From Actinomycetota bacterium (GTDB taxonomy: Bacteria; Actinomycetota; Acidimicrobiia; Acidimicrobiales; Aldehydirespiratoraceae): DNA of 32,141 nt. A model generated the notes under the pieces. That model was not told the origin of the DNA and did not search any database. It saw only the letters and a list, made by a program, of their open reading frames with translations. Position 1 is the stretch's first letter. Each line of letters begins with the position of its first letter. Shown in pieces: positions 3,615 through 30,917 of the stretch. Position numbers and translations under genes: made by a program. The stretch lies in NCBI GenBank assembly GCA_012271125.1, contig JAAXHB010000028.1:1-32141 (forward strand). Direction: 5' to 3'.

Positions 3615-4697
3615 GTGACTACTAACATCGCGACGATGCCTAAGGATCTTCTCGACAGCAAACAACAGCTAGATCACCGCAAGGCAGCGATTCTCGAAGC
3701 GATCATCCGTGAATACATCTCAACCGCTCAACCAGTGGGATCAGGCAGCATTTCCGAAGCTCCCGGCGTTGAAGTCTCCTCAGCCACCGTGCGTAACGAA
3801 ATGGCAGCCCTAGAAAACGATGACTATCTCTGCCAACCCCACACCAGCGCCGGACGAGTGCCAACCCCCAAGGGCTACCGATATTTCGTTGACAAAATCC
3901 GTGGCATGGCACCCAACCTCGACACCGCCGACCGTCGCCAAGTCAGCGATTTCTTCTCTGTCGCCCACAACGAACTCTCAACCATGCTTAACCACACCAC
4001 CGGCCTGCTGTCGGACCTCACCGACTGGGCTGGACTAGTGGTAAGCCCCAGCCCAGTCAACGACACCGTCCGCTCAGTTCAACTCGTTGACATCGCCCCA
4101 GGACGGGTGTTGCTCGTGGCGGTCATGTCAAGCGGTGCCGTAGAGAACCGCGCCCTTGAAGTTGACCCAACAACGACATCAGAAGAAGTCGACGCCGCAT
4201 CCCAAGAACTCACAGCCCGCATCGTGGGACGTTCACCGACAACAGCGACGACTACAGCGACGACTACACCGACAACAACAGACGATTCCGATGCAACGTT
4301 GACAGTCAAAACCTCCACTCTTGCCGATACCGCCATCCGTGCCTTATCCAACAACATCGACCATCACGAAGTCTTCGTCGGCGGCACCGCCAAACTCGCC
4401 GCAGCGTTTGGTGCCGCCGAACAACTTCGTGAAGTCCTAAACGTTCTTGAACAACAGCTAGTTGTCGTCTCACTAATTCGTGAAGTCATAGACAGAGGCA
4501 ACCGTGTCGCCATTGGTGCTGAATCAGGCATCGGCTCTTTGTCGGAATGCTCGCTGGTGTTAGCACCTTATGAGGTCAGTGGGGGAGCAACCGGCACAAT
4601 CGGCATCCTCGGTCCGACCCGAATGGACTACCCCCAGGCACTCTCAGCTGTGGCGGTGGTCAGCGAACGCCTCAGCAGCGTGCTCGGCGACGGCTAA
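3615..4697 (+). CDS. hrcA: Heat-inducible transcription repressor HrcA, carrying a Thr-rich low-complexity insertion
   Basis: AILEAIIREYISTAQPVGSGSI and ATVRNEMAALENDDYLCQPHTSAGRVPTPKGYRYFVD signatures. It lies immediately upstream of dnaJ. The start is GTG 3615, with ATG 3636 as an alternative. Confidence 0.9.
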   Translation: MTTNIATMPKDLLDSKQQLDHRKAAILEAIIREYISTAQPVGSGSISEAPGVEVSSATVRNEMAALENDDYLCQPHTSAGRVPTPKGYRYFVDKIRGMAPNLDTADRRQVSDFFSVAHNELSTMLNHTTGLLSDLTDWAGLVVSPSPVNDTVRSVQLVDIAPGRVLLVAVMSSGAVENRALEVDPTTTSEEVDAASQELTARIVGRSPTTATTTATTTPTTTDDSDATLTVKTSTLADTAIRALSNNIDHHEVFVGGTAKLAAAFGAAEQLREVLNVLEQQLVVVSLIREVIDRGNRVAIGAESGIGSLSECSLVLAPYEVSGGATGTIGILGPTRMDYPQALSAVAVVSERLSSVLGDG

Positions 4698-6596: not shown

Positions 6597-7507
6597 GACA
6601 CAGCTTGTGTGTTCGAGGCGAGCGAAACATCGGTTTGTGACGCATTTGATGGGTGACATACGTCACCAACACCGCCAATGCCATCGCCGGCATCAACACC
6701 GTTGCCAAGCACCAGAACTGTGGCAAACAGAAACCCCATAACGCCAACACCTCCAACGAGCAGATTCCTCTTTGGCAGATTTCGCTTTGGCAGATTCCGC
6801 TTTGGCAAATCCCTTTTTGGCAGATTCCTTGTTTCCGTATCCGGCTTTGACATGTTGCGTCTCTGCCCAAACAGCCGAGCCGGCCTCAACTCCCGCAATC
6901 GTGTTTTTCGCTTAGAGCGAACCAGCTGAGCGGCAACAGAGCGAGCAGTGCGTGCGTTCAATGTCTGATCCAAACGCAACGCCACATCACGAGCCCCGAT
7001 CTCGCCAGCCCTCAACTCACCGGCAATCGCAACCAACCTCTCACCGACAGCACCCCGACTAGAGCGACTCTCACCGCACGCCAAATGCGCCAACGCCTCA
7101 AGATCGGCACGCCGGTTCTCGTCGCTGGCGTCACCAGCTGCGCTAAACCCGCACAACACCGGACGGTCACGCTCGCCGTGCAACACATGACTTGCGTTTA
7201 GTTGACAATGAGCCATGCCCATGTCGTGCAAGTCCGCAATCACACCAGCTAAGGCAGCAATCGCTTCGACTCGCTCACCAGGTTCACCCAGCGGACGACT
7301 AGCCCAGGTGTCAGAGCTCACAAACAATGTCTGCAAGACCCGCCCACCATCTGAGGTGTGTTCGAGCCCAACGAGTCGCACCACGCCAGGATGATCAATC
7401 CGATCCAAAACCTCAGCCTCGTGATCTGCCTTGGCAGCCAGCTCAGCCGAAAGCTCCTTAACAGCAATCAGCTGGTCATTGGATCGGCTAACCGTCACCG
7501 CCGGCAT
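6593..7507 (-). CDS. Membrane-anchored Ser/Thr-kinase-like pseudokinase with (LPKRN)x5 juxtamembrane repeats
   Basis: Kinase-fold landmarks are present: IAVKEL (VAIK-like), EAEVLDRIDHPGVVRL (helix C / HPN-IV-like) and DLHDMGMAHCQLNASHVL in place of HRDLKPxN. CGFS replaces DFG and there is no GxGxxG loop. A C-terminal TM helix LLVGGVGVMGFLFATVLVLG follows. Confidence 0.6.
   Translation of the reverse strand: MPAVTVSRSNDQLIAVKELSAELAAKADHEAEVLDRIDHPGVVRLVGLEHTSDGGRVLQTLFVSSDTWASRPLGEPGERVEAIAALAGVIADLHDMGMAHCQLNASHVLHGERDRPVLCGFSAAGDASDENRRADLEALAHLACGESRSSRGAVGERLVAIAGELRAGEIGARDVALRLDQTLNARTARSVAAQLVRSKRKTRLRELRPARLFGQRRNMSKPDTETRNLPKRDLPKRNLPKRNLPKRNLLVGGVGVMGFLFATVLVLGNGVDAGDGIGGVGDVCHPSNASQTDVSLASNTQAVS
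6761..6835 (-). repeat. 5 x 15-bp tandem repeat inside the pseudokinase CDS, encoding LPKR(N/D) units
   Basis: Plus-strand units are cagattcctctttgg / cagatttcgctttgg / cagattccgctttgg / caaatccctttttgg / cagattccttgtttc. Confidence 0.9.
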
Positions 7508-7659: not shown

Positions 7660-9213
7660 ATGGCAAACAGCACGCCGAGCACGCCAACCAAGATGGCCCA
7701 GACCGCCAGCTCCAAGACCGCCAAAATCGCCGCCGTAGAACCTGGCTCACCCGCCGAGCGTGCCGGCCTCATCGCCGGCGAAGAAATCCTCACCGCTGAC
7801 GGCAAACCAGTCCGAGACGTCATCGCTTGGCAAGCCCTAATCGACCAAACCGAAGTCCCCCTCGAAATCACCACCAACGGCAAAACCCGCCAAGTCGAAG
7901 TCCGCCGCAACTGGGGCGAAACCTTCGGCGTAGAACTCGACACCGCAGTGTTCGACGGCGTCCAAACCTGCGACAACCACTGCGAGTTCTGCTTCATCCA
8001 CCAACTCCCTAAAGGCATGCGCCGCTCGCTCTACCTCAAAGACGACGACTACCGACTCTCATTCCTCTACGGCAACTTCACCACCCTCACCCGCTTCACT
8101 GAAATGGACTACGAACGTGTCCTCTCCGAAAACCTCTCACCCCTATACGTCTCCATCCACGCCACCGACCCCGACATCCGCGCCCAAATCCTCCAAAACC
8201 GCCGAGGCGCACTCTCGCTGCGATGGCTGCGCCTGCTACTCGATGCCGGCATCGAAATCCACGGCCAAGTCGTCGTCTGCCCCGGCGTCAACGACGGCAC
8301 CGTCTTGCAAGACACCCTCTGTGGCGTCCTCGACCGCTACCCCGAACTCGCCTCGCTGTGCGTAGTGCCTCTCGGCGTCTCGGACTACAACCGCCAAGCC
8401 CGCATGCGCCCCCACACCCCAGCCGAATCCGCCGCCGTGCTCGCCGAAGTCCACCGCTGGCAAGACCAATACCTCAACGTCTTAGGCCGCCGCCTCGTCT
8501 ACGCCGCCGACGAGTATTACTTACATTGCCAACAACTCTTCCCTGCTGCTGAAACTTACGAAGACGTAGACATGTGCGAAGACGGCATCGGCATGGCCCG
8601 CTCCTTCATTACCGAATTTCTTGGGGTGTCAGAGCGCGGTCACAACGAGGGGGACGTGGCGTCGGCCCATAGGACGACGCCCATCAACAACAGCTCCGCG
8701 CCGCGTGCTGGTTTTTTCGCTTGGGTTGATGGTGCGCCCGCTGAGGGCTACCGCGCCCCCCGCAACGACGACACTCCAGTACAAATCAAACCATCAGCAG
8801 ATGCTCCTATCGGCATTCTCACCGGCGAACTCGGCGCCCAAGTCCTTAAGCCCCTTATCAACAACGACAACGGTGGCATGCCAGAGCGCGGACACAACGA
8901 GGGATCCGTGGCGTCGCACCATAGTGCGACGCCCATCAACAACGACAACAACAACATTCGGGTTATTCCCGTTAAGAACGACTTCTTCGGCGGCAACATT
9001 GGCGTAACCGGCCTAATGACCGGTGCCGACCTAACGACAACACTCAACAATCAGCCCGAAAACCACCGCTATCTACTGCCCGACGTCTGCCTAAGCCGAG
9101 GCAAGTTCCTAGACGGACTCACCCCAGCAGACCTGCCACGCCCAGTTGAAGTAGTCCCAACCCACGGCGCAGCCCTCCGCCAAGCAATAAGACCCCAAGC
9201 CCTAAAACAATGA
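7660..9213 (+). CDS. PDZ domain / radical SAM / DUF512-type protein carrying two in-frame repeat-element insertions
   Basis: PDZ-like IAAVEPGSPAERAGLIAGEEIL, radical-SAM CDNHCEFCF (CxxxCxxC), and C-terminal blocks EDGIGMARSF and VIPVKNDFFGGNIGVTGLMTGADL typical of DUF512. Confidence 0.8.
   Translation: MANSTPSTPTKMAQTASSKTAKIAAVEPGSPAERAGLIAGEEILTADGKPVRDVIAWQALIDQTEVPLEITTNGKTRQVEVRRNWGETFGVELDTAVFDGVQTCDNHCEFCFIHQLPKGMRRSLYLKDDDYRLSFLYGNFTTLTRFTEMDYERVLSENLSPLYVSIHATDPDIRAQILQNRRGALSLRWLRLLLDAGIEIHGQVVVCPGVNDGTVLQDTLCGVLDRYPELASLCVVPLGVSDYNRQARMRPHTPAESAAVLAEVHRWQDQYLNVLGRRLVYAADEYYLHCQQLFPAAETYEDVDMCEDGIGMARSFITEFLGVSERGHNEGDVASAHRTTPINNSSAPRAGFFAWVDGAPAEGYRAPRNDDTPVQIKPSADAPIGILTGELGAQVLKPLINNDNGGMPERGHNEGSVASHHSATPINNDNNNIRVIPVKNDFFGGNIGVTGLMTGADLTTTLNNQPENHRYLLPDVCLSRGKFLDGLTPADLPRPVEVVPTHGAALRQAIRPQALKQ
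8630..8691 (+). repeat. In-frame palindromic repeat element, copy A (hairpin 8658-8681)
   Basis: cagagcgcggtcacaacgagggggacgtggcgtcggcccataggacgacgcccatcaacaac aligns with copy B over 62 nt. It encodes ERGHNEGDVASAHRTTPINN. Confidence 0.85.
8882..8943 (+). repeat. In-frame palindromic repeat element, copy B (hairpin 8910-8933, perfect 10-bp stem, CATA loop)
   Basis: cagagcgcggacacaacgagggatccgtggcgtcgcaccatagtgcgacgcccatcaacaac encodes ERGHNEGSVASHHSATPINN. It is flanked by the 15-bp direct repeat ATCAACAACGACAAC (8857-8871 and 8935-8949). Confidence 0.85.
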
Positions 9214-10556
9214 CCCTGCCCGTAGTCGCCGTTGTCGGACGTCCCAATGTTGGCAAGTCCACCCTTGTCAATCGCATTATTGGACGCCGCGAAGCCATCG
9301 TAGAAGAACGCCCCGGTGTAACCCGAGACCGCAAATCCGTAGCCGCCGAATGGCAAGGCAAGCAGTTCACACTCGTCGACACCGGCGGCTGGATGGCAGG
9401 CGGCACCGCCCTTGACACCAAAGTCGCCACCCAAGCCGAACTCGCCGCCCAAGGCGCCGACGCAGTGTTATTCGTCGTCGACGCCACCGTCGGCTTCACA
9501 CACGACGACCAAGAAGTCGCCCAAGTCCTCTACCCAATCGAAGCCCCAGTCATAGTCGTCGCCAACAAGGTCGACAATGCCAGTCAAGCCGACGCAATCT
9601 GGGAACTCCTCGGCCTCGGCCTCGGCGACCCCGTCGCCATCAGCGCCCTTCACGGCAAAGGAACCGGCGACCTCCTCGACCTACTCCTAGACAGTATTAA
9701 TGGCAGCGACGCCACGAGCGCCGCTGCCGCCACGAGCACCAGCACTAATGAGGGGTCAGTGGCGTCTCCCCATAGGGAGGCGCCCATCAGCACCGACTTC
9801 TCCGTCGCCCTCGTCGGACGCCCCAACGTCGGCAAATCCACCCTCTTCAACCGACTCATCGGCGAAGACCTCTCCATCGTCCACGACCAACCCGGCACCA
9901 CCAGAGACAGCGTCGACACCGTCGTCAACACCCAAGCCGGCACCATCAGATTCATCGACACCGCCGGCATGCGCCGCAAAGCCCGCATCGACTCTGGCAC
10001 CGAGTACTACTCCCTGGTGCGAGCCCTGCGCTCAGTCGACCAAGCCGACGTCTCCTTGCTAGTCATCGACTCAGCCATCGGCGTCACCCACCAAGACCAA
10101 CGCCTCGCCGAACGCATCGACGCCGCCGGCTCCCCAATCGTCGTCATCTGCAACAAATGGGACATCCTCACCACCGAAGCCAAAGAAAAAATCGCCGAAT
10201 CCCTCGAACACAAACTCAGCTTCATCGGCGGCGCACCCACCCTGCGCATGAGCGCCCTGCATGGCAAAAACGTCGACAAACTCTGGCCCGCCCTTCAAGA
10301 ATCCCTCACCGCCTACCGCACCCGCATACCCACCCGAGCCGTCAACGAAGCCATCCGCGCTGCCCAATCCGCCCAACCCGCCCCCGCCGGTGCTCGCATC
10401 CTCTACGCCACCCAGGGCGCAACCGACCCCCCCACATTCACCCTGTTCGTCAACCGAGACCTGCCCCGCACCTACCTGCGTTACATCGAAAACCAACTCC
10501 GCCACGCTTTCGACCTGACCGCCACCAGCATCAAGCTGCGAGTACGCCGCCGCTAG
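9210..10556 (+). CDS. der: Ribosome-associated GTPase Der (EngA), with a repeat-element insertion in the inter-domain linker
   Basis: Two tandem GTPase domains, each with GRPNVGKSTL, then DTGG / DTAG and NKVD / NKWD, plus a KH-like C-terminus. The ATGA overlap with the upstream CDS suggests translational coupling. Confidence 0.95.
   Translation: MTLPVVAVVGRPNVGKSTLVNRIIGRREAIVEERPGVTRDRKSVAAEWQGKQFTLVDTGGWMAGGTALDTKVATQAELAAQGADAVLFVVDATVGFTHDDQEVAQVLYPIEAPVIVVANKVDNASQADAIWELLGLGLGDPVAISALHGKGTGDLLDLLLDSINGSDATSAAAATSTSTNEGSVASPHREAPISTDFSVALVGRPNVGKSTLFNRLIGEDLSIVHDQPGTTRDSVDTVVNTQAGTIRFIDTAGMRRKARIDSGTEYYSLVRALRSVDQADVSLLVIDSAIGVTHQDQRLAERIDAAGSPIVVICNKWDILTTEAKEKIAESLEHKLSFIGGAPTLRMSALHGKNVDKLWPALQESLTAYRTRIPTRAVNEAIRAAQSAQPAPAGARILYATQGATDPPTFTLFVNRDLPRTYLRYIENQLRHAFDLTATSIKLRVRRR
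9747..9794 (+). repeat. In-frame palindromic repeat element, copy C core (hairpin 9761-9784)
   Basis: aatgaggggtcagtggcgtctccccatagggaggcgcccatcagcacc aligns codon-for-codon with the 48-nt cores of A and B. It encodes NEGSVASPHREAPIST. Confidence 0.8.
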
Positions 10557-13962: not shown

Positions 13963-15075
13963 GTGAGCAGCCCCCAACTCAACACTGCTGCCACTGAGCT
14001 ATTCGGCGTCCGCTATCCCATAGTGCAAACCGGCATGGGCTGGGTCGCCGGCCCCTCCCTAGTTGCTGCCACAGCCAACGCTGGCTGTCTCGGCATCCTC
14101 GCCTCAGCCACAATGACCATCGACGAACTACGCCAAGCCATCGCCGACATTCAACAACGAACCGACAAGCCCTTCGGCGTCAACATGCGTGCCGATAGCG
14201 CCGACCTCGGTGATCGCATCCAAGTTCTTATTGCTACCAATAACGACGACGACAACAACACCGACGACGACAACAACAATGCCAACACCGACAACAACCA
14301 GATACGCGTAGCTAGTTTCGCCGGCGCACCCGCAGCCGACGACATCAAACAACTCCAAGACGCCGGCATCGCAGTAATGCCAACAGTCGGCGCGGTGCGT
14401 CACGCAGAAAAAGTCGCCGAACTAGGCGTCGACGTCATCATGTGCCAAGGCTCCGAAGGCGGTGGCCACACCGGAGTCGTCCCCACATCGCTGCTATTAC
14501 CACAAGTCCTTAACGCTGTTGACGTGCCTGTCATCGCCGCCGGAGGCTTCACCGACGGACGCGGCCTCGCCGCAGCCCTTGCCTGGGGTGCCAGCGGCAT
14601 CGCCATGGGCACCCGCTTTTTACTGACCCAAGAATCCAAAGTTCCAGCCAACATTAAAACCGCCTACCTCAACTCCTCGGTCACAAACACAGTCGTCACA
14701 GACCGAATCGACGGCTCACCGCAGCGAGTCATCAAAACCAAACTCGTCGACACCCTCGAATCACGCAACCCTTTGCGCTGGCTCTTAACCCTCGTCCCAT
14801 TAACCCTCGTCAACGCCCTGCGTTTCAGAAAACTCATCGGAATGCCCACACGACAACTCCTGCGCGAAGCCCGCTCAATGAAACGCAACATGTCGCTGCA
14901 GCAAACCTTGATGGCACCAAACGCCGCCATGCTCACTCGTGCCAGCCTCGTCGAAGGCAACCACAGCGGAGTCCTACCCACCGGTCAATGCGTAGGACTC
15001 ATAGACGACCTCCCAACGTGTGAAGAGCTCGTGCAGCGCATAGTCACCGACGCTCAAGTCGCCCTCACCCGCTAA
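13963..15075 (+). CDS. Nitronate monooxygenase / 2-nitropropane dioxygenase-family FMN oxidoreductase with an N/D-rich insertion
   Basis: YPIVQTGMGWVAGPSLVAATANAGCLGILAS, GSEGGGHTG and VIAAGGFTDGRGLAAALAWGASGIAMGTRFL match the NMO/FabK-like TIM-barrel pattern. GTG start. Confidence 0.8.
   Translation: MSSPQLNTAATELFGVRYPIVQTGMGWVAGPSLVAATANAGCLGILASATMTIDELRQAIADIQQRTDKPFGVNMRADSADLGDRIQVLIATNNDDDNNTDDDNNNANTDNNQIRVASFAGAPAADDIKQLQDAGIAVMPTVGAVRHAEKVAELGVDVIMCQGSEGGGHTGVVPTSLLLPQVLNAVDVPVIAAGGFTDGRGLAAALAWGASGIAMGTRFLLTQESKVPANIKTAYLNSSVTNTVVTDRIDGSPQRVIKTKLVDTLESRNPLRWLLTLVPLTLVNALRFRKLIGMPTRQLLREARSMKRNMSLQQTLMAPNAAMLTRASLVEGNHSGVLPTGQCVGLIDDLPTCEELVQRIVTDAQVALTR
14239..14298 (+). repeat. 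GAC/AAC triplet low-complexity tract (NNDDDNNTDDDNNNANTDNN) inside the NMO CDS
   Basis: aataacgacgacgacaacaacaccgacgacgacaacaacaatgccaacaccgacaacaac. Confidence 0.9.
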
Positions 15076-20172: not shown

Positions 20173-21267
20173 ATGGCAAATAAGCAATCGCCGCTTCATG
20201 ATGTCCATGTAGCTGCCGATGCCAAGCTGGTCGACTTCGGCGGCTGGGACATGCCTGTCGCTTATCCCTCCGGCACGGTTGCTGAGCACATGGCATGCCG
20301 CAACGACGCCGCCATCTTTGACGTCTCACACCTCGGCACGGTTCGAGTCACCGGCGCAGGCGCTCACGACGCCCTCCAATGGTCGCTTTCCAATGACCTG
20401 AACCGCATCGCTGCCGGTGCCGCCCAGTACACACATCTCTTAGATGCCGACGATGCCTCGGTCACCGACGACATCATCGTCTGGTGGCTCAGCGACGACA
20501 ACAGTGACGACAACAATGGCGGCATCTACGACGTCATCCCCAACGCCTCTAACACCGACCGAGTCACCTCAGTCCTGAAACAAGCCGCCGACAACATCAG
20601 CGTCGAAGATGTCACTTCAACTCGTGCCCTGCTCGCCATCCAAGGCCCTAACGCTCGCTCCAAACTCGCCGAAGTGTCACCTGAAGCCGCCGCTGTTGGC
20701 AGGTTCAAGGTCGCCGAAGTTGCCATCAACGGCGTAGACACCATCGTCGCCGGCACGGGCTACACCGGCGAAGACGGCGTCGAAATCGCCATCCCCGTTG
20801 ACGCCGGCGAATTAATTTGGAACGCTCTGGTCACCGCAGGCGTCACCCCCGCCGGTCTCGGTGCCCGTGACACTTTGCGACTTGAAGCAGGCCTGCCTCT
20901 TCACGGTCACGAGCTCGGCCCCGGCATTACCCCGCTTCAAGCCGGTCTTTCCTGGGTTGCCCGCTTCGACAAGGGCGATTTCCGCGGCAAAGCTCCCCTA
21001 GAAGCCGAACAACAAGCCGGCCCTCATCGCATTATGCGAGGTTTGCTATGCGACACGCGACGTCCGCCTCGTGATGGCTGCGAAGTCCTTCGCTCCGACG
21101 AAAGAATCGGCACTGTTACTAGTGGCAACTTTTCACCAGTTCTCGGAGTGGGTATCGCCCTCGCTCTTCTCGATCCTTCAGTAGAGCTTGGCGAAGACGT
21201 CATTATCGACGTTCGCGGCAAGGAAATGCCCGCCAAGGTCGTAAAACCCCGATTTGTAGGTAACTAG
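20173..21267 (+). CDS. gcvT: Glycine cleavage system aminomethyltransferase T
   Basis: [40 protein letters not shown] and [21 protein letters not shown]. The start is at ATG 20173. Confidence 0.9.
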
Positions 21268-23815: not shown

Positions 23816-24811
23816 ATGGGGTCAACCACCCGCGCCCAAAAATCTTCATCTCAAAAACCTTCGTCCCAAAAACCGTCATCCCAAAAATCTTCGTCTAAGT
23901 CTTCAACTAAGACAGCAACATCGTCGTTTGGTACTTCTAAACGTGAAGGCCACAACGCCGACGCCTTCTACGAGCGTTTCCCCACGCCAAACCAAGACCA
24001 AGAACTCACACCTCAACCTCCCGAAAAGGTCGACGAGCTCCTAGTCGGCGACTCTCGCAACATGAAAGAACTTGCCGACAACTCCGTCGCACTTGTTGTC
24101 ACGTCGCCGCCGTATTTCGCCGGCAAGGAATATGAGCTAGAGCCCGGTTCTAACGGCGTGCCTGCTAGCTATATCGAATATTTGAAGATGCTCGCTGACG
24201 TTTTCAGCGAATGCTGGCGTGTTCTCGAACCTGGCGGACGCATCGCCGTCAATGTCGCCAACCTCGGCAGACGCCCTTACCGCTCCCTAAGCGCCGACGT
24301 TGCCCGCATCCTCCAAGACGATGTCGGCTATCTCCTGCGTGGCGAAGTCATTTGGCAAAAATCCGCAGGCTCAAACTCCAACTGCGCCTGGGGTTCGTTC
24401 CAATCCGCCGCCAACCCAGTGCTCCGTGACGTGACCGAGCGTGTGATTATCGCCAGCAAACTCCGCTTTGATCGTGCTATGTCACGTAAGCAACGCCAAA
24501 AAGACGGCCTCCCGCACGAAAACAGCATTTCTAAAGAGGATTTCATGGAGTGGACGCTCGATGTATGGCAGATCGCTCCTGAGTCGGCACGCCGAGTCGG
24601 TCACCCAGCTCCGTTCCCGGTGGAGCTTCCCAAGCGCCTGATCGAGCTCTACACCTACGAAAAAGATTTAGTCCTAGACCCTTTTGTCGGTGCCGGCACA
24701 ACCGCCCTCGCTGCCAAAGACACAAACCGCCATTACTGGGGCTACGACACCGACTCCAGCTACATCACCCTCGCCGAAAAACGCCTCCAGCCCCAACAGA
24801 AGAACAGCTAG
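23816..24811 (+). CDS. Orphan beta-class DNA methyltransferase (N4-cytosine or N6-adenine; N4/N6 MTase domain) with an N-terminal (SSQKP)n tail
   Basis: Motif IV VVTSPPYF precedes motif I LDPFVGAGTT (beta-class order), with HPAPFPVELP between them. No endonuclease-like ORF is adjacent. Confidence 0.85.
   Translation: MGSTTRAQKSSSQKPSSQKPSSQKSSSKSSTKTATSSFGTSKREGHNADAFYERFPTPNQDQELTPQPPEKVDELLVGDSRNMKELADNSVALVVTSPPYFAGKEYELEPGSNGVPASYIEYLKMLADVFSECWRVLEPGGRIAVNVANLGRRPYRSLSADVARILQDDVGYLLRGEVIWQKSAGSNSNCAWGSFQSAANPVLRDVTERVIIASKLRFDRAMSRKQRQKDGLPHENSISKEDFMEWTLDVWQIAPESARRVGHPAPFPVELPKRLIELYTYEKDLVLDPFVGAGTTALAAKDTNRHYWGYDTDSSYITLAEKRLQPQQKNS
23837..23896 (+). repeat. 4 x 15-bp tandem repeat encoding (Q)KxSS units at the MTase N-terminus
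   Basis: caaaaatcttcatct / caaaaaccttcgtcc / caaaaaccgtcatcc / caaaaatcttcgtct. Confidence 0.9.
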
Positions 24812-25796: not shown

Positions 25797-28691
25797 CTAA
25801 GACGCCAATAAATCCATTGGCGGGCAGCTACAGACAATGTTGCGGTCACCGTAAGCACCATCAATTCGCGAAACAGGAGGCCAGTACTTGTTGATCTGAT
25901 CGCTACCAGATGGAAACGCCGCCTCCGAGCGCAAATACGGATGCGGCCAATCGTCAGCAGTTACGTCCTCACATGTGTGCGGCGCATTCACCAGCGGATT
26001 GTCATCAGCAGGCCAGTCCCCAGAACCAACCCGCTTAGCCTCAGCAGCAATCGCCAGCATCGCCTCACAGAAACGGTCAAGCTCCGCCTTGTCCTCAGAT
26101 TCGGTCGGCTCCACCATCAGTGTCCCCGCAACAGGAAAGCTCATCGTCGGCGCATGAAAGCCGTAGTCGATAAGCCGCTTGGCGATGTCGTCAACAGAAA
26201 CCCCGTACTCGTCTTTCAAAACACGAGTATCGAGAATGCACTCATGAGCCACATACCCGTTAGTCCCCGAATACAAAATCGGATAAACCTCAGCCAGCCG
26301 AGTAGCAACATAGTTGGCGTTCAGGATCGCTATCTCAGTCGCGCGACGCATCCCCTCAGCACCCATCATCCGTATATACATCCACGGAATCGCCAAAATC
26401 CCAGCCGAACCCCAAGGCGCAGCCGCAATCGGACCCGGCCCTGTCGGAGGCCCAGCCACAGGAGTCAACGGATGATTCGGCATAAACGGCGCCAAATGCT
26501 CAGCCACACCAATCGGCCCAACCCCAGGCCCACCGCCGCCGTGAGGAATGCAAAACGTCTTGTGCAAGTTCAAATGCCCAACATCGGCACCGAACTGCCC
26601 AGGTCGAGCCAACCCGACCATCGCGTTCAGGTTCGCCCCGTCCAAATACACCTGCCCGCCATGCTCATGTACAACGTCACAAATGTGACGAATCGCCGGC
26701 TCAAACACACCATGTGTCGACGGATAAGTAATCATCAACGCCGCCAAAGAATCCGAATGCTCATGCGCGAGCCGTTTCAAGTCGTCAACGTCGACATTGC
26801 CGTTGTCGTCGCACTCAACGACGACAACACGCATCCCTGCCATCACCGCACTCGCCGCATTCGTGCCATGCGCCGACGACGGAATCAGACAAACATCACG
26901 ACCCGCATCGTCACGACTCTGGTGATAAGCACGAATCGCCAATAACCCCGCCAGCTCACCTTGCGCCCCGCTGTTGGGCTGCAACGACACCGCCGCATAA
27001 CCGGTGATCTCCGCCAACCAGTTCTCCAGCTGATCCATCATCAGCTGATACCCAGCGGTCTGATCAGTCGGCGCAAACGGATGAATGTCAGCCAACTCCG
27101 GCCAACTCACCGGCTCCATCTCGATAGCAGCATTGAGCTTCATCGTGCACGACCCCAGTGGAATCATCGACCGATCCAGCGCAATGTCACGATTCACCAG
27201 ACCCCGCATGTAACGCACCAAATCGGTCTCACTGCGATACGCACTAAAAATCGGATGCGACAACGGTGGCGTCGATCGCTGATACCCCGAAGGAATCGAC
27301 TCCGCCACAGCGTCCAAATCGTCAACGTCGGCATCAATCCCGAACGCCGACCACACAATCTGCACCTCACGCCGAGTAGTGGTCTGATCCAACGCCGCCG
27401 CAACCGTGTCAACGTCAACTCGACGCAAGTTCACACCCTCAGCCAACGCCAAAGCAATGACCTTGTCGGCCCGCCCTGGTACCCGAGCACACACCGTGTC
27501 AAAAAACTCGTCATGCACAATCTCAACGCCGCCGTCACGCAACCCCTGCGCTAACACCCCCGCCAAACGATTGACACGCTCCGCAATACGGCGCAACCCG
27601 CTCGGCCCGTGATACAGCGCATACATCGACGCCATCACCGCCAACAACACCTGCGCCGTGCAAATATTCGACGTCGCCTTCTCCCGACGAATGTGCTGCT
27701 CACGTGTCTGCAACGCCAACCGCAACGCCTGACGTCCTTTCGTGTCAACCGACACCCCGACTAAACGCCCCGGCAACGACCGCGCATTGTCCTCGCGCAC
27801 CGCGATATACGCCGCATGCGGCCCCCCGAACCCCATCGGCACACCAAATCGCTGCGTTGACCCCACCACAACGTCCGCCCCCAATTCACCCGGCGGTGTC
27901 AACACACACAGTGCCAACGGATCAGCCGCCACCGCCACCTGCACACCAGCGGCATGCGCCCGTTCCACCACCGCCGCCAAATCCACGATTGCGCCGGTCG
28001 TGCCCGGATACTGCACCAACATCCCGTAAGCCCCGTCCAAATCCGCGGTCGCCGGATCACCCACAACGACATCCAATCCAATCGGCTCCGCCCGAGTGCC
28101 CACCACCGCAATCGTCTGCGGATGACAATCCGCATCCACAACAAAGCGCAACCCCTTCGCCTTGCGATTCGTCCGCTGCAGTAAGGTCATCGCCTCCGCC
28201 GCCGCTGTCGGCTCATCCAACAAAGACGCATTGGCAACATCCATGCCGGTCAACTCCGCCACCATCGTCTGATAATTCAGCAACGCCTCCAACCGACCCT
28301 GCGAAATCTCCGGCTGATACGGCGTGTAAGCCGTATACCACCCCGGATTTTCCAACACATTGCGCCGAATCAGCGCCGGCGTAATCGTCTGGTGATACCC
28401 CATCCCAATCATCGACGTCACCAGCAAGTTCTTGCGAGCCATCTCCCGCAACTCATCTTGCGCGAACTGCTGCCGACACGCATCGGGCAAATTCAACGCC
28501 TCGCGCTTGCGAATGTCATCAGGCACAACCCGATCAATCAGCTCACCGAGATCACCCACACCAATCGTGTCCAGCATCTGCTGCACCGCCTGCGCCCCAG
28601 GCCCAATATGACGCCCCGCAAAAGTATGACGAGCATGCAGGTCATCAAGCGTCAACCGCTTGCCCGATTCTTGATTTAGTCCACGTGACAT
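25797..28691 (-). CDS. gcvP: Glycine dehydrogenase (decarboxylating), single-chain P protein
   Basis: About 960 aa with [32 protein letters not shown] and the PLP-lysine region [16 protein letters not shown]. The start is placed at ATG 28691; the track start at 28718 is a TTG. Confidence 0.95.
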
Positions 28692-30601: not shown

Positions 30602-30880
30602 ATGAATAAAGGTGAACTCGTCGCAGCAATGGCGGGTCAAGCCGATGTCTCTCAGGCTGATGCTGGAAGGTGTCTCGACGCCTTCCTGTCAACAGTTGAG
30701 GACGAAGTATGCAGCGGCGGCGACGTAAACATCTCGGGTTACCTAAAGTTTTCCCGTACTCGCCGCAGCGCACGCACCGCCCGCAACCCAAGAACGGGCG
30801 AAACCGTCAATGTGCCAGCGACAAACGCAATGAAGGTGCAAGTCGGTTCCAAGCTCAAGGCTGCTGTTAAAGCTTCCTAA
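30602..30880 (+). CDS. hup: HU/IHF-family nucleoid-associated DNA-binding protein
   Basis: MNKGELVAAMA and the RTARNPRTGE arm motif, 92 aa. A GAAAGGAG Shine-Dalgarno lies upstream. Confidence 0.9.
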   Translation: MNKGELVAAMAGQADVSQADAGRCLDAFLSTVEDEVCSGGDVNISGYLKFSRTRRSARTARNPRTGETVNVPATNAMKVQVGSKLKAAVKAS

Positions 30881-30886
30881 AGCAAT

Positions 30887-30917
30887 GGTGGGTACCGGCA
30901 AGTCGCCGGTACCCACC
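30887..30917 (+). terminator. Perfect 13-bp stem / 5-nt loop hairpin after hup (I-shaped terminator, no U-tract)
   Basis: ggtgggtaccggc-aagtc-gccggtacccacc begins 6 nt after the hup stop. Confidence 0.6.

Follow-up and report, generated by a model that had tools for sequence, protein, structure and literature searches.

REP and REPIN sequences are short units of 20-40 nt, each a single imperfect hairpin, which are mobilised by RAYT (HUH Y1) transposases. REPs are extragenic, are usually arranged as inverted doublets, begin with a 5' GTAG motif and occur in hundreds of copies beside a RAYT gene. Mobile GC clusters and hairpin elements are also found in the mitochondrial genes of fungi, sponges and placozoans, where they reach many copies in AT-rich organellar genomes. 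Palindromic repeats which have inserted into genes in frame have been documented as RPEs (Ogata et al. 2000, 2002, as summarised in PMC10969869) and among some MITEs (PMC10969869), and the best documented cases are those of Rickettsia. It should also be noted that template switching can create and maintain perfect hairpins and thereby mimic compensatory substitutions (PMC8794818, PMC7202029).

We analysed a 32,141-nt stretch of DNA from a lineage of Acidimicrobiia (hereafter the window) and found three copies of a short hairpin, each in frame within one of two adjacent housekeeping genes. By function we read these copies as a lineage-specific in-frame palindromic repeat, which lies outside the RPEs by size, copy number and sequence and also falls outside the REPs and the classical MITEs. 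Our preferred explanation, to which we give slightly less than even probability, is that the element is a short, non-autonomous, RPE/REP-like hairpin repeat, for which the DNA hairpin is needed for copying and the encoded peptide is a passenger. If selfish hairpin DNA has independently found shelter in genes of a free-living lineage of Acidimicrobiia, coding sequence would seem to offer such a refuge more generally, and conserved proteins could gain new surface loops from these repeats. For now, three local copies on one contig are a curiosity, and a system of this kind is not yet demonstrated.

Three in-frame repeats in two adjacent genes

The first host gene (positions 7660..9213, + strand) encodes a 517-aa PDZ / radical-SAM-like / DUF512 protein, as identified with Pfam. 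The second (9210..10556, + strand) is der/engA, encoding a double GTPase of 448 aa which was identified by Pfam and by synteny, and its start overlaps the stop of the first gene (ATGA). The nearest homologues of the DUF512 protein are from Acidimicrobiia/Actinomycetota and are at most 65% identical to it. We recovered four syntenic loci (L006-L009) with the gene order lepA-hrcA-dnaJ-...-DUF512-der-spoIIE. No transposase was found among the genes of the window, all the others of which were ordinary housekeeping genes.

Two of the hairpins lie in the DUF512 gene and one in der/engA, all of them on the + strand and with the loop CATA. Hairpin A (8658-8681; GGCGTCGGCC-CATA-GGACGACGCC) consists of 7 bp, a G/A mismatch and 2 further bp, hairpin B (8910-8933; GGCGTCGCAC-CATA-GTGCGACGCC) has a perfect 10-bp stem, and hairpin C (9761-9784; GGCGTCTCCC-CATA-GGGAGGCGCC) has 10 bp including one T-G wobble. 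These coordinates and letters match those of the initial annotation exactly, and its translations of the peptides at the hairpins (SAHRTT for A, SHHSAT for B and SPHREA for C) are correct. When folded as DNA on the + strand the hairpins were predicted to be more stable than shuffled sequences, with energies of -11.8 kcal/mol for A (z = -4.4), -14.3 kcal/mol for B (z = -6.6) and -11.0 kcal/mol for C (z = -4.8). For both imperfect copies the antisense fold was weaker (A: -11.8 vs -9.7 kcal/mol; C: -11.0 vs -9.5 kcal/mol); on the - strand the T-G wobble of hairpin C becomes a C/A mismatch. The motif GGCGYC-N4-CATA-N4-GRCGCC was found at these three sites only in the window, a count which was reached in 0 of 100 dinucleotide-preserving shuffles. 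The number of perfect stems of ≥ 7 bp in a scan of the whole window was close to that expected by chance, and the stem of copy B was one of just three in that scan with ≥ 10 bp.

Each hairpin forms the core of a longer direct repeat of approximately 50-70 nt. Copy A (8622..8691, + strand) encodes GVSERGHNEGDVASAHRTTPINN in frame within the DUF512 gene and belongs to a direct-repeat family; the copy scores 64 bits by nhmmer and 76.4 bits by covariance model. Copy B (8874..8943, + strand) encodes GMPERGHNEGSVASHHSATPINN in frame within the same gene and agrees with A at 84% of positions across 70 nt. Copy C, which shares the core only (9748..9799, + strand; 76 bits by covariance model), encodes NEGSVASPHREAPIST in frame within the inter-GTPase linker of der/engA. 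The peptides of the repeat are ERGHNEGDVASAHRTTPINN in A, ERGHNEGSVASHHSATPINN in B and the one already given in C. Between C and the other two copies there is an ungapped core of approximately 52 nt, and farther upstream the similarity is weak and gapped; identity over 70 nt is 61%. The best conserved parts are the hairpin itself (19/24 positions identical) and the CCCATCA which follows it; in the 36 nt upstream of the hairpin just 16-17 positions are identical. The conserved flanks are asymmetric, with GAGGG-N4-GT before the stem and CATCA after it. The central hairpin is the sole inverted repeat, and the ends of the 70-nt unit of A and B are not complementary. We also looked for another conserved helix in the repeat's left half, which was unsupported.

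The copies share both the + strand and one reading frame, and each hairpin starts at a third codon position. Every copy holds a TAG in frame +0 and a TGA in frame -2, so that not every frame would be tolerated within a gene. The copies are in direct orientation, are spaced by 252 and 851 nt and are clustered inside 1.1 kb (p ~0.0035 under random placement in the window). A perfect direct repeat of 15 nt, ATCAACAACGACAAC, lies on either side of copy B, its left copy at 8857..8871 (+ strand) and its right copy at 8935..8949 (+ strand); the first 9-12 nt of the latter are also present after hairpins A and C. The spacing of the two 15-nt repeats, 78 nt (26 codons), roughly equals the gap seen when the orthologues are aligned, and these repeats may represent a target duplication, a part of the element or a co-copied flank. 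Neither A nor C has a flanking direct repeat.

The copies are insertions specific to this lineage. In an alignment against 15 DUF512 orthologues, all of which lack both copies, A is an insertion of 18 residues and B one of approximately 25 residues, and both fall where the length of the DUF512 family already varies. In Der, copy C falls within the linker which joins the two GTPase domains, and the length of this linker varies in the Der proteins of the four syntenic loci. In an AlphaFold model both inserts of the DUF512 protein (residues 326-377 and 405-429) were modelled as coil with pLDDT < 50 between structured elements; the model is of moderate quality (mean pLDDT 64) and is weak evidence for disordered loops. 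The initial annotation was sound with regard to the hairpins, and had overlooked that the copies are lineage-specific insertions clustered in 1.1 kb. A common core in which the hairpin and its immediate flanks are best conserved, the lack of A and B in the 15 orthologues and the position of C in a length-variable linker all speak for a hairpin repeat.

Under our preferred explanation, the functional core would be the 24-nt DNA hairpin (10-bp stem, CATA loop, and flanks of GAGGG-N4-GT and CATCA), three copies of which would have entered two housekeeping genes that are adjacent and co-oriented. The hairpin would fold from single-stranded DNA at the replication fork, making the sequence copyable; it may be recognised as a structure by a trans-acting enzyme, or it may promote strand switching. 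The copies would have survived because the length of each is a multiple of three, its frame is open and it has entered a loop or linker of variable length, where the extra 16-26 residues would be a tolerated passenger. Because it is the hairpin which would make the sequence copyable, complementary arms would be kept while the inner stem and the peptide drift. The repeat and its hairpins, the status of the copies as insertions, their common frame and clustering and the correlated changes of the arms are observations; that the repeat is mobile, that DNA and not RNA is the relevant form, and that the peptide is a passenger is what we infer.

Further copies and comparison with described repeats

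No further copy was detected in the 32-kb window (nhmmer, and a covariance model with filters off) or in 84 kb of syntenic DNA from the four Acidimicrobiia loci (covariance model), the best non-self score in these scans being 13 bits. Genomes and metagenomes were scanned with the pattern GTGGCG-N6-CATA-N6-CGCCCATCA, and IMG/VR with a looser one. This gave 2 hits in 185,579 species genomes, 3 in JGI metagenomes and 1 in IMG/VR, all of which lacked a paired stem and were rejected as chance matches for that reason. A blastn search with copy B against plasmid and phage collections returned nothing, and a six-frame concatenated peptide query returned nothing at E ≤ 10. When a profile of the peptide was compared to 1.84 billion representative proteins there were three hits, all to unrelated repeat proteins, and in a database of 5.8 billion clusters no protein shared three 5-residue words with the peptides. 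The source contig and its DUF512 and Der proteins are absent from the collections searched, and these negative results cover other known organisms alone. A local phmmer control gave 9e-14 as the expected score for the protein encoded in the window; it was not recovered, so the proteins of the window lie outside the searchable database. Within the collections searched, the element thus does not occur in other known organisms. A resemblance ('HSATP-ND') in the Der linker of locus L006 was put down to chance, as the DNA there has no hairpin.

Against our preferred explanation are the presence of three copies only, with none in the other 31 kb of the window; the absence of terminal inverted repeats and of a consistent target duplication, a direct repeat being found at B alone; and the absence of a transposase from the window and of copies from the genome, metagenome, viral, plasmid and phage collections. 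With all of the copies confined to 1.1 kb and alike in orientation and frame, local copying fits better than genome-wide transposition. A bolder proposal would be that these are members of a new family of approximately 50-nt, single-hairpin mobile elements in the Actinomycetota, found in frame at loop-coding positions of essential genes, whose hairpin is recognised as folded single-stranded DNA by a trans-acting enzyme and is kept by selection for mobility. We consider this unlikely; if true, the family would be an independent miniature analogue of the Rickettsia RPEs in a free-living lineage.

RPEs are the closest described counterpart. Like them, the element is a palindrome in frame in unrelated housekeeping genes, with a conserved but functionless-looking peptide at fold-compatible sites, and in both the conserved feature is the hairpin-forming nucleotide sequence. 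In-frame insertion at sites which are empty in orthologues was found here for A and B (missing from all 15), with C in a variable linker, and stable hairpins were predicted (10-bp stems, z = -4.4 to -6.6). RPEs are however approximately 100-150 bp long and are present in tens of dispersed copies in Rickettsia (Alphaproteobacteria), whereas the element is approximately 50-70 nt long with a single 10-bp hairpin and is known from three copies in 1.1 kb of an Acidimicrobiia lineage. The many dispersed copies of RPEs were not found, no DNA similar to the element was detected in the collections searched, and a similarity to an RPE family is not apparent.

The likeness to REPs and REPINs lies in a short hairpin unit which would be recognised as single-stranded DNA and whose stem may vary while pairing is kept. 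The differences are that the copies described here are all intragenic singletons in direct orientation, and that the stem is preceded by GT-GG (an invariant G-T and then the GGCG of the stem), with GTAG absent. No RAYT or Y1/HUH transposase gene was found among the ORFs of the window. MITEs such as ERIC, BOX and the Coxiella QMITE (PMC10969869, PMC5896051) resemble the element in being non-autonomous and in lying inside ORFs with the frame kept open. They are usually > 100 bp long with terminal inverted repeats and short target-site duplications, whereas the element has its palindrome in the centre, lacks terminal inverted repeats and is flanked by a direct repeat (15 nt) at B only. When target-site duplications were checked for, this 15-nt repeat at B was found to belong in part to the shared core, and A and C had none. 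Mitochondrial GC clusters are likewise short GC-rich palindromes within coding sequence, sometimes in frame, and differ in being organellar, in belonging to other sequence families and in having many copies.

Several other kinds of element were considered for the hairpins and rejected. A transcription terminator was excluded by the lack of a T run and by the location inside ORFs, a translational bypass or frameshift element by the open frame and the lack of a slippery site, and attC, dif and parS sites as well as an intein remnant on grounds of anatomy. Only a tRNA-Pro passed the Rfam gathering threshold in the window, and the best Rfam match in the region of the repeats, at the hairpin, reached 23 bits where the gathering score is 40 (E ~0.8).

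It is also conceivable, although in our judgement quite improbable, that the repeat is a cis-acting RNA hairpin in the DUF512-der mRNA, acting as a processing or stability signal or as a translational pause and kept in place by selection. The three copies do lie in one probable transcript, given the overlap of the der start with the DUF512 stop, the DUF512-der pair is syntenic in four relatives, and the imperfect copies A and C fold better on the sense strand, where T-G is a legitimate wobble. This asymmetry between the strands depends, however, on two base pairs; ribosomes unwind hairpins within translated regions, and there was no Rfam match above noise. Selection acting in place on an mRNA hairpin, which the initial annotation had allowed for, found little support, as relatives have the same operon without the element and copy A in a 79-nt RNA context was not more stable than shuffles (z = +0.5).

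Correlated changes of the stem arms and the encoded peptide

We compared the stems of the three copies pair by pair, counting from the outside. Pairs 1-4, 6 and 10 are identical in A, B and C, as is the loop. Pair 5 is T-A in A and B and a T-G wobble in C. At pair 7 (G-C in A and B, T-A in C) and pair 9 (C-G in A and C, A-T in B) both sides have changed with pairing kept, and at pair 8 (C-G in B and C, G/A in A) both sides have changed in A and the pair is broken. Two of the three doubly changed pairs are therefore compensated (7 and 9) and one is broken (8), and among the variable inner cells 8 of 9 are paired. The private substitutions of each copy hit partner positions (p = 1.5e-4 to 4e-4, random placement vs the majority sequence), and the pairing of 29/30 cells gave p values of 0.0008 to 0.019 under several models of random substitution. 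A column-shuffle control, with three sequences only, gave 18/500 for the number of cells paired and 63/500 for covariation. The arms of the stem clearly do not evolve independently. For conserved pairing the formal statistics with three sequences range from p ~0.0004 to 0.13 depending on the test, and are only suggestive.

The initial annotation had stated that the inner positions of the stem change on both arms together, which is borne out by pairs 7, 8 and 9, and that the CATA loop and the outer stem are constant, which we confirmed in all three copies with GRCGCC on the right arm. Its account had left out pair 7, which like pair 9 is compensated, and the double change at the broken pair 8. 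It had further concluded that selection appears to act on nucleic-acid structure. The correlation between the arms stands, but three copies are too few to establish selection on structure, given the results of the shuffles (18/500 and 63/500), the broken pair 8, the nine invariant residues of the peptide and the possibility of neutral template switching. The fact that pair 8 of copy A is unpaired, though changed on both sides, also counts against our preferred explanation. The locus is a clean small example of apparent compensation which could arise from structural selection or from neutral arm-to-arm template switching.

The latter process is part of the main alternative explanation, which involves no mobile element and which we regard as possible but on balance unlikely. 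A single founder insertion would have been copied nearby by replication template switching or microhomology-mediated repair, and correction of the quasi-palindrome from arm to arm would mimic compensation without selection. As in quasi-palindrome mutagenesis (PMC8794818, PMC7202029), the inverted repeats are short and near perfect, the arms change together, and the process would be local and would require no function encoded by the element. The copies are tightly clustered in adjacent genes in the same orientation and frame, the similarity of A to B and of B to C extends into the 15-nt repeat beside B (ATCAACAAC[GAC]) as if a flank had been co-copied, and slippage-prone AAC/GAC runs are abundant in the genome. 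Quasi-palindrome mutagenesis would however explain the upkeep of a hairpin and not by itself the arrival of a 50-70-nt unit with asymmetric flanks at three unrelated sites. C shares the core alone and is far more diverged (61% over 70 nt), the flanks have diverged around an unchanged loop and outer stem, and the doubly changed G/A pair of A is not predicted by arm-to-arm correction.

The conservation of the outer stem could alternatively reflect a double-stranded DNA site, in which a dimeric protein (perhaps nucleoid-associated or involved in segregation) reads the outer half-sites GGCGTC / GACGCC, 12 bp apart. We find this scarcely probable. It would account for conserved outer half-sites around a variable centre and for three sites in 1.1 kb, but the spacer of such a site needs no self-complementarity, yet 8/9 variable inner cells pair, and the symmetry of the changes in the inner stem is hard to reconcile with a protein operator whose spacer is free to vary. 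Furthermore, the CATA centre is invariant, and conservation extends asymmetrically to GAGGG upstream and CATCA downstream.

With regard to the peptide, there are approximately 4 synonymous vs 9-10 non-synonymous differences over the 16 shared codons (counted by hand), and constraint on the peptide looks weak. The initial annotation had described the amino acids as not conserved. This is true of the variable SAHRTT/SHHSAT/SPHREA segment, although nine residues are invariant in all copies (N-E-G-x-V-A-S-x-H-x-x-x-P-I), so that conservation of nucleotides and of peptide are inseparable at those sites. One could suppose that a His-rich peptide module, perhaps metal- or partner-binding, was selected as protein and that the palindrome is incidental. 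We think this very unlikely, despite the nine invariant residues and a stretch (ERGHNEG) which is unchanged from A to B across two synonymous differences. No homologous peptide was found elsewhere in the proteins searched, and with neither a homologue nor a protein sharing three 5-residue words the peptide does not appear to be a known protein module. Coding constraints do not yield a perfect 10-bp palindrome, the residues which alternate at the variable positions (A/H/P, R/S and T/A/E) have no chemical kinship, disorder is predicted for the segments and rare codons have been retained. The codon adaptation of the element falls between the 20th and 37th percentile of host windows, which is not significantly atypical and hence, the rare AGG/AGT apart, unusable as evidence of foreign origin. 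AGG, which makes up 2% of Arg codons, and AGT, with 7% of Ser codons, are both kept in place by the CATAG motif.

Direct repeats and N/D-rich runs

The second copy of the in-frame hairpin repeat (copy B, 8874-8943 on the + strand) is bracketed by a perfect 15-nt direct repeat, ATCAACAACGACAAC, which was found at 8857-8871 and again at 8935-8949, a spacing of 78 nt. No counterpart of this flanking repeat was found at copy A, which lies with copy B in the DUF512 gene, or at copy C in der/engA. The ATCAACAACGACAAC pair could be a target duplication, a product of slippage or a portion of the copied unit.

Low-complexity N/D-rich runs made up of AAC and GAC codons were found at 4222-4291, 14235-14300 and 20481-20538, and the residues surrounding copy B (INNDN...NNDNNN) are similar in style to these runs, which suggests that the genome is prone to slippage. 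The NMO-like gene of the window contains one such run, ATNNDDDNNTDDDNNNANTD, which is absent from its orthologue in L006, one of four syntenic Acidimicrobiia loci which we compared with the window.

Tandem repeats and a DNA methyltransferase gene

Two tandem repeats with a 15-nt period, both encoding pentapeptide repeats, are located within ORFs: 4.7 copies at 6760-6829, inside the ORF of a hypothetical protein on the - strand, and 3.9 copies at 23835-23895, at the N-terminus of an N6/N4 DNA methyltransferase gene (23816-24811; Pfam N6_N4_Mtase). No restriction partner for this methyltransferase was identified among the window ORFs scanned with Pfam, and it is possibly an orphan methylase.

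Other hairpins

The strongest hairpin in the window (30887-30917) has a perfect 13-bp stem and a 5-nt loop, GGTGGGTACCGGC-AAGTC-GCCGGTACCCACC, and follows an HU-like gene (30602-30880; Pfam Bac_DNA_binding), 6 nt beyond its stop. The hairpin lacks a T run and looks like a terminator of the T-tract-less type; such terminators are common in Actinobacteria. A further perfect stem, of 10 bp with a 7-nt loop (GTTGTCGTCG-CACTCAA-CGACGACAAC), lies at 26802-26828 within the - strand gene for glycine dehydrogenase (GcvP). This stem is composed of GAC/AAC codons, the same vocabulary as the N/D-rich runs, and is probably due to chance or related to slippage.

A database match and base composition

The database protein P0121, which came from the profile search with the peptide encoded by the three copies, consists of an 83-residue unit repeated six times in tandem, with SPDVASLIRATPVN within the unit. 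It appears to be the translation product of a tandem DNA repeat in another organism and was rejected as a relative of the element's peptide, the resemblance being by chance only.

GC skew is negative throughout the window (1-32141), ranging from -0.08 to -0.35, and AT skew is positive almost everywhere. Most of the genes are carried on the + strand, and the coding strand is markedly C- and A-rich over the entire window.
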